A stretch of 11,321 nucleotides of DNA from UHGV virus genome UHGV-1559644. The stretch is one strand, 5' to 3'. Below are positions 2,574 to 11,321 of this stretch, piece by piece. The DNA is from a virus. A program made the position numbers and the translations under genes. Numbering within the stretch: position 1 is the stretch's first letter; every line of letters starts with the position of its first letter. The notes beneath the pieces were generated by a model that was given only the letters and a program-made list of their open reading frames with translations, did no database searches and had not been told where the DNA came from.

Positions 2574-4058
2574 TTATTCATTAAGCCATGCCAGAGCTTC
2601 ATCAACCTGCGCTTCGTCTTCGACGCTAAGCACTTCATCCTGGGGAACATAATCCGCCAGCATAGCGAAACAATATGTATCCCAATGGTCTGGTGAGTGC
2701 AGGTTGAGTTTTTTCTTCATATCCTCCTTACTCATCACCTTCCATTGACCTGCGGAGTTAATCCCTACAGGGATTTTCGACGCTTCCTCAATAGTTTCAT
2801 TACCCTTATCCAGTCTCATACGACCTGATTTTACGGCCTCTGCGGCTTGAACGTTGGCATAAGCACGCTTATCAAAGTACAGGCTCTTATCTTCACGGCT
2901 ATGCATCTTTTTACCCCAGCGTATACGCTGTACGGTAATACCATAATACTCGTACATCAGATCCGCCGTTGCTTTACCCAGCCCATCACCGTCTATCGCT
3001 ATGGTGATATTTGGGAATCGCTCAGGATTACATTCTGCGAAAATTTTGGCGGCAAGCTGCGTTTCTGTAACGTCTGTGTATTCCAGCATTCGATAGTTGA
3101 TTACACGGCGTTTATTTCTCTGGCCGGACACCATCATGATATTGATAACGGACTTATCCCGTCCCGTACCACCAGCAACGTCCACACATGCAAGCCAGCC
3201 CCATCCTTTGGCAATCTTGACTTTCCGCCGCGTCGCACGTTCAACCTCATCACGTCCAAGAAGGAAGCCATCCTGTGATTTAGGGAATAGTCCGCGTACC
3301 TTAATCATGTACATAGGGTTATCACGCCCGCCGTACTCCGCCAGCTTCATTTTGATAAATGCTGGCGTTACCAGCGGTGATTCCTCACTGTTAAGCGTGA
3401 TCGCCGTATAAACGCCATCAGGGTTACCAGGACGCTTGGCCAGTTTATGGTGAGTATCGTAGAAATAGCCGCTTGGGCGTGTAGGCTGTGACAATAATAA
3501 GATGCGGTTATCCTGTCCGGTAAGAGCACCAGTGATGATACCGAAAGCTCTATCACTGACACCGGAGGCTTCATCGATAATATACAGAAGATGATCTGCG
3601 TGTTCACCGGCGAGAGCTTCTTCACTTCCCAGACGAAAGCCCTTCGGTACTACAGTCCATACACCTTTACCAGTAACCTCATAGAAAGCGGTTTCTGTCA
3701 GAACAAAATAATCAGCAAGCCATGGAAAACGGCTGGTGGCAGTAGCCCAGTTTATCTTGATGTACTTGAATATACCGGTCATTACCTGCTGAATTTTGTT
3801 CGCAACGATAATGGCGCGGGCACCGGGATACATGATTATGAACAACATGATCATGATAGAAGTCATGTCTGATTTCCCGGTACCGTGACCAGACGAAACA
3901 GATGTCTTGCTACCCTGTTCCTGCACAGACTCAATAATCAGATCCTGCTGCCAGGTAGGTGTTTTGCCGAACAAAACATCAGCGGCAGCAATCCAGTCAT
4001 AACGATATAGCGCCACCAGCTCGCGCCAACGTGGATCCGTTACGCAACTTCTGGCCAT
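2574..4058 (-). CDS. pacB: PacB, terminase (pacase) large subunit, 494 aa
   Basis: Walker A-like GHGTGKS and Walker B-like [11 protein letters not shown]. Start overlaps the pacA stop by 1 nt; synteny with P1 pacA-pacB. Confidence 0.88.
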
Positions 4059-6948: not shown

Positions 6949-7149
6949 TTATCTGCTGCCCGGCATTCTCTGTTTAAGCACAGCCATTTCCTGACGGCAT
7001 AACACAGCAATAGCGGTCCTGGCACCAATTTGCCTACCAACCAGGTATTGCTTTACCTCGCGGCGACTCACGCCATCAAGAAGCATCTTTAACGCTTCAC
7101 GGGACAACTTGTTGTATTTACGTGCCATTAATCTACTCCGCAGAACCAT
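6949..7149 (-). CDS. small hypothetical protein (59-66 aa) with HTH-like segment, immediately downstream of doc
   Basis: ORF start at 7149 overlaps the doc 3' end; an alternative ATG at 7128 lies 4 nt after the doc stop. Sequence [22 protein letters not shown] resembles a small HTH. Coding status is uncertain. Confidence 0.4.
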
Positions 7150-7513
7150 ACAATCTACGTAACGTGTCGGCGACAGAAGATACAGATATCTCGCCAGTCG
7201 CAGCGCCTACGGTAAGGTCTGCCAGTTCAGGTGAATCAAATACCTGCACCCCGTTACGGCGTAGAAATAGCAGCGCACTGTTTAGCGCGGTACGCTTATT
7301 GGCATCATTGAATATATGCCCTCTCGCTGTAGCCACCAGGTAGGTGGCGGAGACTTCGAAAAGGTCGGTGATCTCTTCGTAGGCAACTCTGGCCTGAACT
7401 CTCCCGATAATGGCCTCTGCCCTACCCGGATCTGACATTCCCGGCAGGCCGCCGTAGCGGCTTATATTCGCATCATGAAGCGCAATAAGTTCTTCCGGTG
7501 ATATATGCCTCAT
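7133..7513 (-). CDS. doc: Doc toxin (death on curing), Fic-fold kinase, 126 aa
   Basis: Sequence [22 protein letters not shown]... with Fic motif HIFNDANKR. Start overlaps the phd stop by 1 nt. Confidence 0.96.
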
Positions 7514-7734
7514 TATCGGTTAACCAGTTCCTTGTTGGTGGAGTCCAGAGTGTCAAACAGGGATGCAAATTCAGCATCCAGCGCCGCTTTTTTGTAGGCT
7601 TCGAAAGTAGCCTTGCTGACAATTACTGCTGGCTCACGGCCTCTGCGGGTGATTTCAACCTCTTCCCCGGCTTCAACATTGTTGAGCACTTCAGAAAGGT
7701 TGCCGCGCGCGGTACGGAAGTTAATGGATTGCAT
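7513..7734 (-). CDS. phd: Phd antitoxin (prevents host death), 73 aa
   Basis: [73 protein letters not shown]. The true ATG is at 7734 (the track ORF starts at an upstream GTG at 7740). SD GAGGTG is 4 nt upstream. Confidence 0.96.
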
Positions 7735-7740
7735 AAACAC

Positions 7741-7775
7741 CTCGTGTACTCGTTATGTGTACACAATTATAAACT
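7741..7775 (-). promoter_or_regulatory. phd-doc promoter/operator: -10 TATAAT with palindromic GTGTAC(AC) Phd-binding-type sites
   Basis: Minus strand reads TATAAT TGTGTACACATAACGAGTACACGAGGTG...ATG. GTGTACAC at 7757-7764, second half-site at 7745-7752. Confidence 0.6.
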
Positions 7776-7806
7776 TCACAGGCATAAAGCACCAGCACTT
7801 TGCAGC

Positions 7807-8196
7807 TTAAATCACCGGACAATCATCAAACTCCCCACTTCGGGCATCATTGATGACATGAGTGATCACACCAAAAACAGCATTACTGCCCGTGCATCCA
7901 TCGTCATCTACTGGTAACGCCTCTTTCTTCCCGGTGCTTAAATCCTCCAGGTGCTGGCGCGGATACTTCCTGTATCTCTTTATGCGATATTCACCCTCCA
8001 TAGCGCACACAAGCAGAGAACCATCAACCGGAGTAAGCGAGGAATCAACCACCAGCAAAGCACCCTGCAATATTCCCTCACGGTGATGGCTATCAGCTGC
8101 CCGCATGAAGTAGGTTGCTGATGGATGCCTGATTAGTTGCTGATCAAGAGAAATTCGGCTTTCAACATAATCCGCCGCAGGAGAAGGGAAGCCCAT
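7807..8196 (-). CDS. humD: HumD, UmuD'-like translesion-synthesis accessory protein, 129 aa
   Basis: FPSPAADYVE...HPSATYF and C-terminal VFGVITHVI resemble UmuD. A LexA box lies 20 bp upstream; SD GAGGTGG. Position upstream of phd as in P1. Confidence 0.88.
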   Translation of the reverse strand: MGFPSPAADYVESRISLDQQLIRHPSATYFMRAADSHHREGILQGALLVVDSSLTPVDGSLLVCAMEGEYRIKRYRKYPRQHLEDLSTGKKEALPVDDDGCTGSNAVFGVITHVINDARSGEFDDCPVI

Positions 8197-8215
8197 AGCG
8201 TTTCCACCTCAATAA

Positions 8216-8235
8216 TACTGTTCATTTATACAGTA
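8216..8235. promoter_or_regulatory. LexA (SOS) box TACTGTTCATTTATACAGTA in the divergent humD / ORF 8371 intergenic region
   Basis: Perfect CTGT-N8-ACAG with AT-rich spacer, flanked by TA as in the consensus TACTGTATATATATACAGTA. Overlaps a -10-like TATAAA for humD. Confidence 0.85.
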
Positions 8236-8370
8236 TACATTAAAGAGACACCTTTGGTGCAAACGCGTTACGTACATCAACCACCGCTGATGATTTTGTG
8301 CGCTTTGCTACTATTCATCACCAACGGATCAGCGTAACCTCGTTGCCAATCAGTTAATAAGGAATTAGCT

Positions 8371-8955
8371 ATGCCTAATCGCATTCCTCTCGATCCTGTA
8401 TTGCCCAAAAATTTTGACTGCACTCCTAACGAGAAACGCTTTAAAGCTCAGCTGGACGCCTAGTGGGACCATCCATATGGGGTTACACAACCTGACGGGA
8501 AAATTGTAGTTTATTGTCTGAATGGTGGGGCGTGGGACCGTCCATCCGTGCTTTGTTTGGCAGATAACTATGATGAAGCCTGTGAACTTGCCGAAAGACA
8601 GCAGGCAAGCTGGGTAAAAACACGGTCTGAACCGACATTCATGTTTTCAAAAGAACCGCCATTTATACTGGCGAGGATGTCGCAGCGACCGGATCATCAA
8701 CAAGAAATTGTTGCTGAATTTTCCTCAAGGGATGAGATGAATCTCTTCTCATTAAAGCAGGAAGAAAGGGATCGCGTCGAAGTGTCTCCAACTCTCGACC
8801 ACAACCGGATGAACCTGGCCCAGCTCGCCTGGTACAGCAAAGAATTAGAGATGTCTATTGCCCGGCTTGAAAACGAAAAAGCCGCTATCCAAGTCCAGCA
8901 CGAAGTAGTTCTGAACCGGATTAGAGAAATGCAAAACGATAACAGGGGATTTTGA
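8371..8955 (+). pseudogene. hypothetical protein gene (193 sense codons) interrupted by one in-frame amber codon at 8461-8463; alternatively a 30-aa ORF plus a separate downstream ORF
   Basis: ATG at 8371 with SD AAGGA 8 nt upstream. The frame stays open from the TAG at 8461 to the stop at 8953. The downstream segment has no credible start/RBS (GTG 8548 and ATG 8641 lack an SD). C-terminal part is coiled-coil-like. Confidence 0.45.
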
Positions 8956-9312
8956 ATGGCTAAAATCGAGTACCATCGCGATCGCAGTAATTACCTGGAA
9001 ATATACGATCATGAATCTCTTAACGATATCAACGATGCGTTATATGAATACTGTGAAAAAACGAGCATCACAGATGCACCTGATGCATTTGTCGAGCTGC
9101 CGGTATATCTCCGCGACATCTATGCAATACGAACACCGCCCGTATCGGTGATTCACATTGGCTATGTCCGCCTGTCCATCGAAGAAGATGAAGATCGTTA
9201 TATCGTGCGCCACTATACATTGGACAGAAAAGAACTTCCTAATGAATGGAACATGAGTAATTTCTACAACGGTGAATATGGCTTAAAATCCGCTAATAAT
9301 TTACGGTCATAA
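8956..9312 (+). CDS. hypothetical protein, 118 aa, translationally coupled to the preceding ORF
   Basis: ATG at 8956 immediately follows the TGA of the upstream ORF; SD AGGGGA 8 nt upstream. No homolog recognised; AT-rich. Confidence 0.6.
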   Translation: MAKIEYHRDRSNYLEIYDHESLNDINDALYEYCEKTSITDAPDAFVELPVYLRDIYAIRTPPVSVIHIGYVRLSIEEDEDRYIVRHYTLDRKELPNEWNMSNFYNGEYGLKSANNLRS

Positions 9313-9865
9313 TCTATACAGGCATGTATAACAACAACGAGCCTATTAGCTGTCAACAACGTTATTTCCTCAAATAAGAAAAAGCAGAAAACAAATTGTT
9401 TAAGGTCACAAATTGTGGCCTTGATGGAGGAGGGAGGCTTATTGGCTATGGCTAAAAATCAAATTAGACACTTCATGTTGCTGTAGCTCATCAAGATCCG
9501 AGGCCACAAAACCTTTTCCGAAAAACTTCACAAGTAACTCACTAGCCGCATCATTGTCACCTATTACACGAAAGTCATACGGCAACGTCGCAAGTTGACG
9601 ATGTAATCCTGCTGAGAAAGTCGAATCTAACAGCGCCCAGAATTCCCACCGCAGGATAATACTCGCCTCTTAATACTGTATATATGTTGTTACGATATGT
9701 TTTTCTGTCTCTAAAAAAAGATGTTAATAGAATGCTAACCATTGAAGGGGATAAAAATATACAATTCCAACAAACGTTATTTTTAACAATTTTTTTCTTT
9801 GCGTTGACTTTCCCGGACACCTTGTCTGACCGAAGGTGCGCGAAAGCCACTTTTTCCTTCCTGAG

Positions 9866-9874
9866 TTATCCACA
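9866..9874 (+). promoter_or_regulatory. DnaA box TTATCCACA in the nrdA promoter region (second weaker box TTATGCAC at 9879-9886)
   Basis: Exact 9-mer DnaA-box consensus about 160 bp upstream of the nrdA ATG. Confidence 0.7.
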
Positions 9875-9903
9875 AAGTTATGCACTTGCAAGAGGGTCAT
9901 TTT

Positions 9904-9950
9904 CACACTATCTTGCAGTGAATCCCAAACATACCCCCTATATATAGTGT
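9904..9950 (+). promoter_or_regulatory. tandem NrdR boxes (CACACTATCTTGCAGTG and CCCTATATATAGTGT) of the nrdAB promoter
   Basis: Two imperfect 16-bp palindromes of the acaCwAtATaTwGtgt type spaced about 31 bp centre to centre, 80-120 bp upstream of nrdA. Confidence 0.7.
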
Positions 9951-10027
9951 TCTAAGCAGCTTCCCGTACTACAGGTAGTCTGCATGAAACTATTGCGGAA
10001 AGAATTCCAAAAACAGGTACGACATAC

Positions 10028-11270
10028 ATGAATCAGAATCTGCTGGTGACAAAGCGCGACGGTAGCACAGAGCGCATCAATCTCGACAAAATCCATCGCG
10101 TTCTGGATTGGGCGGCAGAAGGACTGCATAACGTTTCGATTTCCCAGGTCGAGCTGCGCTCCCACATTCAGTTTTATGACGGTATCAAGACCTCTGACAT
10201 CCACGAAACCATTATCAAGGCTGCCGCAGACCTGATCTCCCGTGATGCGCCGGATTATCAGTATCTCGCCGCGCGCCTGGCGATCTTCCACCTGCGTAAA
10301 AAAGCCTACGGCCAGTTTGAGCCGCCTGCGCTGTACGACCACGTGGTGAAAATGGTCGAGATGGGCAAATACGATAATCATCTGCTGGAAGACTACACGG
10401 AAGAAGAGTTCAAGCAGATGGACACCTTTATCGATCACGACCGTGATATGACCTTCTCTTATGCTGCCGTTAAGCAGCTGGAAGGCAAATATCTGGTACA
10501 GAACCGCGTGACCGGCGAAATCTATGAGAGCGCCCAGTTCCTTTATATTCTAGTTGCCGCGTGCTTGTTCTCGAACTACCCGCGTGAAACGCGCCTGCAA
10601 TATGTGAAGCGTTTTTACGACGCGGTTTCCACATTTAAAATTTCGCTGCCGACGCCAATCATGTCCGGCGTGCGTACCCCGACTCGTCAGTTCAGCTCCT
10701 GCGTACTGATCGAGTGCGGTGACAGCCTGGATTCCATCAACGCCACCTCCAGCGCGATTGTTAAATACGTTTCCCAGCGTGCCGGGATCGGCATCAACGC
10801 CGGGCGTATTCGTGCGCTGGGTAGCCCGATTCGCGGTGGTGAAGCGTTCCATACCGGCTGCATTCCGTTCTACAAACATTTCCAGACAGCGGTGAAATCC
10901 TGCTCTCAGGGCGGTGTGCGCGGCGGTGCGGCAACGCTGTTCTACCCGATGTGGCATCTGGAAGTGGAAAGCCTGCTGGTGTTGAAAAACAACCGTGGTG
11001 TGGAAGGCAACCGCGTGCGTCATATGGACTACGGGGTACAAATCAACAAACTGATGTATACCCGTCTGCTGAAAGGTGAAGATATCACCCTGTTCAGCCC
11101 GTCCGACGTACCGGGGCTGTACGACGCGTTCTTCGCCGATCAGGAAGAGTTTGAACGTCTGTATACCAAATATGAGAAAGACGACAGCATCCGCAAGCAG
11201 CGTGTGAAAGCCGTTGAGCTGTTCTCGCTGATGATGCAGGAACGTGCGTCTACCGGTCGTATCTATATTC
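10028..11270 (+). CDS. nrdA: ribonucleoside-diphosphate reductase 1 alpha subunit (class Ia RNR), N-terminal about 414 codons; 3' end truncated by the adapter
   Basis: Translation from the ATG at 10028 (MNQNLLVTKRDGSTERINLDKIHRVLDWAAEGLHNVSISQVELRSHIQFYDGIKTSDIHETIIKAAADLISRDAPDYQYLAARLAIFHLRKKAYGQFEPPALYDHVVKMVEMGKYDNHLLEDY...) matches E. coli-type NrdA including the ATP-cone. Absent from the ORF track because it has no stop in the window; the minus-strand track ORFs 9938..10438 and 10550..11311 are its shadows. Confidence 0.96.
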
Positions 11271-11321
11271 CTGTCTCTTATACACATCTCCGAGCCCACG
11301 AGACCGATCAATCTCGTATGC
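11271..11321 (+). other. Illumina Nextera P7-side adapter (CTGTCTCTTATACACATCTCCGAGCCCACGAGAC, then index bases and ATCTCGTATGC)
   Basis: Exact match to the Nextera read-2 transposase adapter, followed by index-like bases and the start of the P7 tail. Technical, non-biological. Confidence 0.95.

Follow-up and report, generated by a model that had tools for sequence, protein, structure and literature searches.

A conserved LexA box linked to humD in a P1-like phage-plasmid and its doubtful role in the control of the divergent lxr operon

Organisation of the humD-lxr region

The stretch of DNA that was analysed (hereafter the window) comprises 11,321 nt of the viral genome UHGV-1559644 and represents a P1/P7/SJ46-like phage-plasmid with about 99% identity. 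Its minus strand carries pacB, pacA, lpa, pdcB, pdcA, doc, phd and humD, and its plus strand carries c1 and coi and, downstream of the LexA box described below, lxr/upf94.2 and upf93.6. Positions 7000–9500 share 99.1% identity with Salmonella phage SJ46, 99.0% with P1-like isolates, 98.7% with P7 and, across the part common to both, 97.8% with the P1 reference; in the humD-lxr region the window is 98–99% identical to the P7, SJ46 and P1-like records. A search of Rfam gave no RNA family match anywhere in the window.

The gene humD (7807–8196, minus strand) encodes a UmuD'-like protein of 129 aa, as judged by its match to the NCBIfam HumD equivalog NF051876 (219 bits, cut-off 120), a Pfam Peptidase_S24 match and the annotation of P1, P7 and SJ46. 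Residue 2 of HumD aligns with Gly25 of UmuD, which is residue 1 of UmuD' in the structure 1umu, and the protein thus appears from the alignment to be made already in the processed UmuD' form. The P1 protein reportedly complements UmuD' in combination with the host UmuC, and the window itself has no umuC partner gene. The P1 record carries the note "functionally complements E. coli UmuD'" for humD. Directly downstream of humD lie the toxin-antitoxin genes phd-doc (7133–7740, minus strand), which have their own promoter Pphd with the -10 hexamer TATAAT at 7771..7766 (minus strand). The humD-phd interval showed no terminator-like site, so read-through from a humD promoter into phd-doc is possible.

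On the other side of a 174-nt intergenic region, the plus strand carries an lxr-like gene of 194 codons (8371–8955, PHROG 6164; lxr, "LexA regulated function", in P1 and upf94.2 in P7) with an in-frame amber codon at 8461–8463, followed by a upf93.6-like gene encoding 118 aa (8956–9312, PHROG 5797). The ATG of upf93.6 comes directly after the stop codon of lxr, which suggests that the two genes form an operon.

A canonical LexA box on the humD side of the intergenic region

The 20-mer TACTGTTCATTTATACAGTA at 8216–8235 has the features of a LexA operator (SOS box): its arms TACTGT and ACAGTA are perfect (12/12 positions, no mismatches), and only three positions, all in the spacer, depart from the consensus TACTGTATATATATACAGTA (17 of 20 identical). 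When the window was scanned for TACTGT-N8-ACAGTA with up to two mismatches, this was the only match, and 200 shuffled versions of the window, with dinucleotide content preserved, contained no exact match. The approximate heterology index was 4.5–4.8, which is inside the range of the bona fide training sites and within the range of functional sites (below about 15), but it should be underlined that the underlying matrix was self-built, with 20 E. coli SOS boxes as input, and is not the published one, so that these values are indicative only. The box is situated close to humD, with a gap of 19 nt to the humD ATG (8196, minus strand) and of 135 nt to the plus-strand ATG at 8371. Both the near-consensus character of the box and its distances to the two start codons had been proposed in the initial annotation, and both were borne out.

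The same annotation regarded the box as the single canonical one, which holds as far as canonical boxes are concerned; however, a weaker box, AACTGTATGGATTTACAGGT, is present at 915–934. Its approximate heterology index is 7.0, and all other positions in the window scored 13.8 or higher. This is the second LexA site that the P1 record annotates over the promoter P2coi, adjoining loxP, and it links the SOS response to coi. Both host-LexA sites thus belong to the same element and the same record, but the P2coi site (AACTGT...ACAGGT) is weaker than the humD box (7.0 versus 4.5–4.8 on the approximate index) and is tied to the immunity/lytic switch through coi, the C1-inactivator, and not to translesion synthesis.

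The assignment of the humD box to LexA is not new. The same 20-mer, placed identically with respect to humD and lxr/upf94.2, is labelled "LexA binding site in the regulatory region of lxr and humD" in the P1 record (AF234172) and "LexA: regulation of humD expression" in the P7 record (AF503408; see also the annotation of Lobocka et al. 2004), and the P1/P7 annotations have contained the site, its attribution to LexA and the notion of lxr co-regulation since the early 2000s. The name lxr was given by the P1 authors from position alone. In the accessible literature on humD, lxr, LexA and P1 lysogen RNA-seq, we found no LexA-binding, SOS-induction or start-site data for the box at 8216–8235: in Ronayne 2016 the coi LexA site is no more than mentioned, and humD serves as a gene without C1 control, and Piya 2023 shows by CRISPRi that lxr and humD are non-essential, lxr being dispensable for P1 lytic growth. 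What the present analysis adds are corrections, namely that the comparative evidence links the box to humD and not to lxr, that there is a better -10 candidate for humD, and that this copy of lxr is truncated by an amber codon.

The box is conserved together with humD

To what extent the box is maintained is evident from 80 humD loci in IMG/VR. The core CTGT-N8-ACAG was retained in every one of them, and all 12 arm positions in 74. The loci collapse into 26 haplotypes, among which the eight core positions showed no variants and the 8-nt spacer occurred in nine variants; the minor-allele counts were 4 over the 12 arm positions versus 31 over the 8 spacer positions. An invariant core around a variable spacer is the pattern expected if selection acts on the positions contacted by LexA.

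A LexA box was also found upstream of the UmuD'-like gene in all ten distant phages tested (N15, phiKO2, HK140, the P22-like BTP1, vB_Ecl_MII_003, Huey, pAEv1818 from Aeromonas, yong1 from Hafnia, Cyrano and CMS-2020a), whose proteins are 45–94% identical. In eight of these ten the box starts 34–37 nt before the start codon, compared to 39 nt in the window, and the neighbouring genes are unrelated from one locus to the next.

The box also stays linked to humD where lxr is absent, as judged by these sequence comparisons. In RCS47 and D6 the homology to the window ends at about 8244–8246, just past the box, and the co-directional gene hot is located upstream of humD. Of the 80 IMG/VR loci, 35 carried hot alone in the 1.5 kb upstream, and an opposite-strand lxr, complete or fragmentary, was found in 39. 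Moreover, when 639 PLSDB hits were sampled at even intervals, about half matched just the 5' end of humD and the box. Taken with the P1/P7 annotation, the invariant core and the ten distant loci strongly support the proposal of the initial annotation that humD is under LexA control.

Predicted promoter of humD

A strict consensus scan returned no sigma-70 promoters in 7700–8700, and the promoter assignments given here rest on a self-built, approximate position weight matrix (PWM) for which about 113,000 positions were scored. With this PWM, the best -10 candidate on the minus strand was TATACT at 8237..8232, which reached the 99.96th percentile and was similar to the Pphd control. On the humD strand the hexamer is formed by bases 5' of the box plus the first bases of the box itself, the two thus overlapping by 4 nt at the outer end of the box; the block consisting of AATGTA upstream of the box and TACTGT is almost invariant across the 26 haplotypes, and its six AATGTA bases are invariant. 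The -35 region is poor in the P1/P7 type, the predicted candidates being TGCACC (18-nt spacer) or TTGCAC (19-nt spacer) at 8256..8262 (minus strand). In the RCS47/D6 type, as read from the sequence, TATACT is paired with a -35 hexamer TTCACA that matches at five of six positions, at 18-nt spacing. Transcription of humD would then start at about 8225, inside the box.

Two other placements of the humD promoter were considered and rejected. The initial annotation had the box overlapping a -10-like TATAAA; this hexamer does exist on the minus strand (8230..8225), but it falls in the variable spacer, where relatives have TATGAA, TACAGA, TACGGA or TGCAGA. The P1 record, for its part, predicts PhumD inside lxr, some 480 nt farther upstream; its hexamers (TTGTTG ... 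CATCCT) are poor and are not among the top PWM matches.

With regard to the laboratory P1 strain, the reference sequence (3737–3738, corresponding to window positions 8236–8237) reads TGTACT next to the box, in contrast to the window, P7 and SJ46, which have TATACT; every one of the 80 IMG/VR loci likewise has TATACT or else TATGCT. This difference weakens the predicted humD -10 of that strain. HumD is reported to be poorly expressed, and the TGTACT of P1 might be related to this.

Promoter candidates and state of the lxr operon

For lxr, the best sigma-70-like candidate on the plus strand was CTGATG, separated by a 16-nt spacer from a TG-extended TACTAT (8287–8314, with the -10 at 8309–8314), which scored at the 99.94th percentile. 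Its -35 begins 51 nt past the end of the box and its -10 lies 73–78 nt past it, and because this candidate is located downstream of the box, bound LexA would not be able to occlude it. The TTTGCTACTATTCATCACC block of the candidate was invariant in 21 intergenic haplotypes; these haplotypes are about 97% identical, so phylogenetic footprinting of the region between box and lxr was uninformative. An alternative plus-strand -10, TACATT at 8236–8241, directly abuts the box and, of the arrangements found, is the sole one that would let LexA occlude a promoter of lxr. It scored just 5.4 (99.77th percentile), which is not distinctive, its -35 (ATAATA) is poor, and the P1 reference has CACATT in this position.

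The coding sequence of lxr differs from those of P1 and P7 at codon 31 (8461–8463), which is TGG in P1, P7, SJ46 and pJIE250_3 and TAG only in the window; the corresponding Trp31 is invariant in an alignment of 24 members of the family. The TAG is either an error of sequencing or a genuine null mutation; in the latter case the lxr copy of the window is probably inactive. A second change close to the amber codon, Ser24 to Phe at 8441–8443, is likewise unique to the window.

Three IMG/VR loci (L074, L103 and L129) carry independent internal deletions that remove parts of lxr and upf93.6, corresponding to parts of 8337–9140 of the window. The left end-points of these deletions fall at about 8336–8339 and 8391, and the box and humD are retained in all three. 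From these sequences, the lxr-upf93.6 region seems to behave as a dispensable variable hotspot.

Relatives of lxr and their upstream regions

About 125 aa at the N terminus of Lxr form a domain that recurs with 50–60% identity in proteins of 130–140 aa encoded on conjugative plasmids or ICEs of alpha-, beta- and gammaproteobacteria. The motifs LDxWWDHPYG and CLNGGAWDR are invariant in this domain (loci L007–L064, alignments A1 and A2), and NCBI labels these proteins "DNA-binding protein". Neither Lxr nor Upf93.6 matched any Pfam, NCBIfam or PADLOC family, and the fold predicted for Lxr, although confidently modelled, had no match among the solved structures in the PDB or the viral structures in BFVD. 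The suggestion in the initial annotation that the operon supplies a partner for the UmuD'-like protein thus found no support in either the family or the structure searches.

We examined the upstream regions of lxr relatives at 61 loci outside the P1-type humD-box-lxr arrangement. At 57 genome loci, no lineage-appropriate LexA box was present within 400 nt upstream of the lxr relative, the sole loose match being one with CTGG/CCAG arms (L058), and none of four loci with full-length relatives, on Salmonella, Enterobacter and Klebsiella elements, had one within 400–450 nt; it should be noted that many of the distant relatives may be internal genes of operons, for which the absence of an upstream box is weak evidence. 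The geometry and the pattern of linkage nevertheless favour, on sequence grounds, an operator specific to humD over co-control of lxr, and the old annotation idea that the box co-regulates lxr is not supported by the comparison, which leans against it.

Some individual loci deserve mention. At one of them (L011) the lxr relative had seemed to lie beside umuDC-like genes encoding 139 and 426 aa; the 426-aa product matched TrbI and a neighbouring 330-aa product CagX, which are both conjugation proteins, and the 139-aa protein gave no match. On an Enterobacter contig (L067), about 100 nt upstream of the lxr homologue, there is a sequence resembling the P1 box, TGCTGTTCATATAAGGCAGTA, with a 9-nt spacer and a GCAG arm, which may have arisen by decay of a LexA site or by chance. 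On a Salmonella P1-like plasmid (L065/L066), lxr (67% identity) is located away from humD and follows a perfect palindrome, TTTGTTTGT-CAAC-ACAAACAAA, which overlaps a TTGTCA hexamer resembling a -35 and may serve as the operator of another repressor.

Proposed regulation and alternative explanations

Based on the above, we consider it quite probable that the 20-mer serves as the host-LexA operator of the humD promoter, and that lxr-upf93.6 is most likely transcribed from a promoter of its own and is probably not directly repressed by LexA. The sequence of the box, its position, its conservation pattern and its linkage to humD are shown by the analysis, and LexA binding, the promoter positions, SOS induction and the independence of lxr are inferred. 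In an undamaged lysogen, a LexA dimer on 8216–8235 would cover part of the TATACT -10 and the predicted humD start, and RNA polymerase would be excluded. Upon DNA damage, activated RecA would lead to self-cleavage of LexA, and humD would then be transcribed, possibly with read-through into phd-doc. Being born as UmuD', HumD could join the host UmuC without the slow RecA-mediated processing. The lxr-upf93.6 operon would be driven from between the box and the lxr ATG. If confirmed, such an arrangement would mean that the phage-plasmid supplies its host with pre-activated UmuD' only during the SOS response, which could hasten error-prone translesion synthesis and mutagenesis in lysogens; this has some relevance, since P1-like plasmids now spread resistance genes.

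A close likeness is to the umuDC operator of E. coli, where a LexA box overlaps the umuDC promoter; in both cases a canonical CTGT-N8-ACAG box is located just upstream of a UmuD-family gene, and in the window it would overlap the predicted -10 and start. The umuDC operon is repressed by LexA and becomes derepressed after RecA-stimulated cleavage of LexA, and by analogy the humD box is expected to share this logic. Unlike umuDC, however, the window lacks umuC, and HumD is pre-truncated, so that the post-translational checkpoint of UmuD would be missing.

The most serious alternative, which we nevertheless regard as unlikely, is that the box acts as a bidirectional operator, one LexA dimer repressing both humD and a back-to-back lxr promoter at TACATT, with the consequence that lxr-upf93.6 would be SOS-induced as the initial annotation proposed. 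This is what the P1 gene name implies and what the P1 annotation of the site reads, the plus-strand hexamer does adjoin the box directly, and the closest precedent is found in phiKO2 (NC_005857), where one annotated LexA box is located between the divergent dinI and a umuD-like gene; dinI is divergent in HK140 too. The phiKO2 region differs from the present one, though, in being only about 78 nt long, compared to 174 nt in the window, in having -10 hexamers annotated in both directions within a few nt of the box, and in that dinI is a recognised SOS gene, whereas the relatives of lxr elsewhere occur without LexA boxes. The low score of TACATT, its essentially absent -35 and its CACATT counterpart in P1 argue against such an operator, as do the better plus-strand candidate 50–75 nt downstream of the box, the far greater distance of the box from the lxr ATG than from the humD ATG, the lack of an upstream box at all 61 lxr-relative loci outside the P1-type arrangement, and the persistence of the box where lxr is absent. 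A further-reaching version, in which lxr-upf93.6 is truly co-repressed by the same LexA dimer and Lxr constitutes a new DNA-damage-induced factor of mobile elements, appears to us distinctly improbable; if true, Lxr might for example act with HumD and Hot to modulate RecA, Pol V or replication.

LexA bound to the box might instead act as a roadblock or insulator against minus-strand transcripts entering humD-phd-doc, without occluding a promoter. The position of PhumD in the P1 record, inside lxr, would fit such a role, and so would the co-directional hot directly upstream in RCS47 and D6, from which read-through is plausible. We nevertheless hold this to be very unlikely, given the poor hexamers of the upstream PhumD, the conserved distance from box to start codon across phages with quite different upstream genes, and the invariant -10-like TATACT that overlaps the box. 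That the 20-mer has no regulatory role and is a palindrome present by chance or left over by decay, humD being constitutively expressed at a low level, would agree with the negative outcomes of the nearby consensus promoter scan and of the literature searches, but is scarcely credible in view of the shuffled sequences, the invariant arms around a variable spacer, and the same box-to-start geometry recurring before humD-like genes in ten unrelated phages.

Ends of the contig

Both ends of the window consist of Illumina Nextera adapter sequence, the i5 side at 1–49 (ATCTACAC-CTAAGCCT-TCGTCGGCAGCGTCAGATGTGTATAAGAGACAG) and the i7 side at 11271–11321 (CTGTCTCTTATACACATCTCCGAGCCCACGAGAC-CGATCAAT-ATCTCGTATGC), indicating that the window is an untrimmed contig from a short-read assembly. 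The adapter truncates cre near position 50. At the other end, 9773–11270 corresponds to the E. coli chromosomal region ypaB-nrdA (99.5% identity), which is present in all 5426 complete genomes. The homology to P1, P7 and SJ46 extends to 9911, leaving about 140 nt in common with the ypaB-nrdA stretch, and the P1 record describes a stretch near upfO/upfN as similar to an E. coli DnaA-box region. The contig is probably a chimeric join through this repeat; a real recombinant is less likely.
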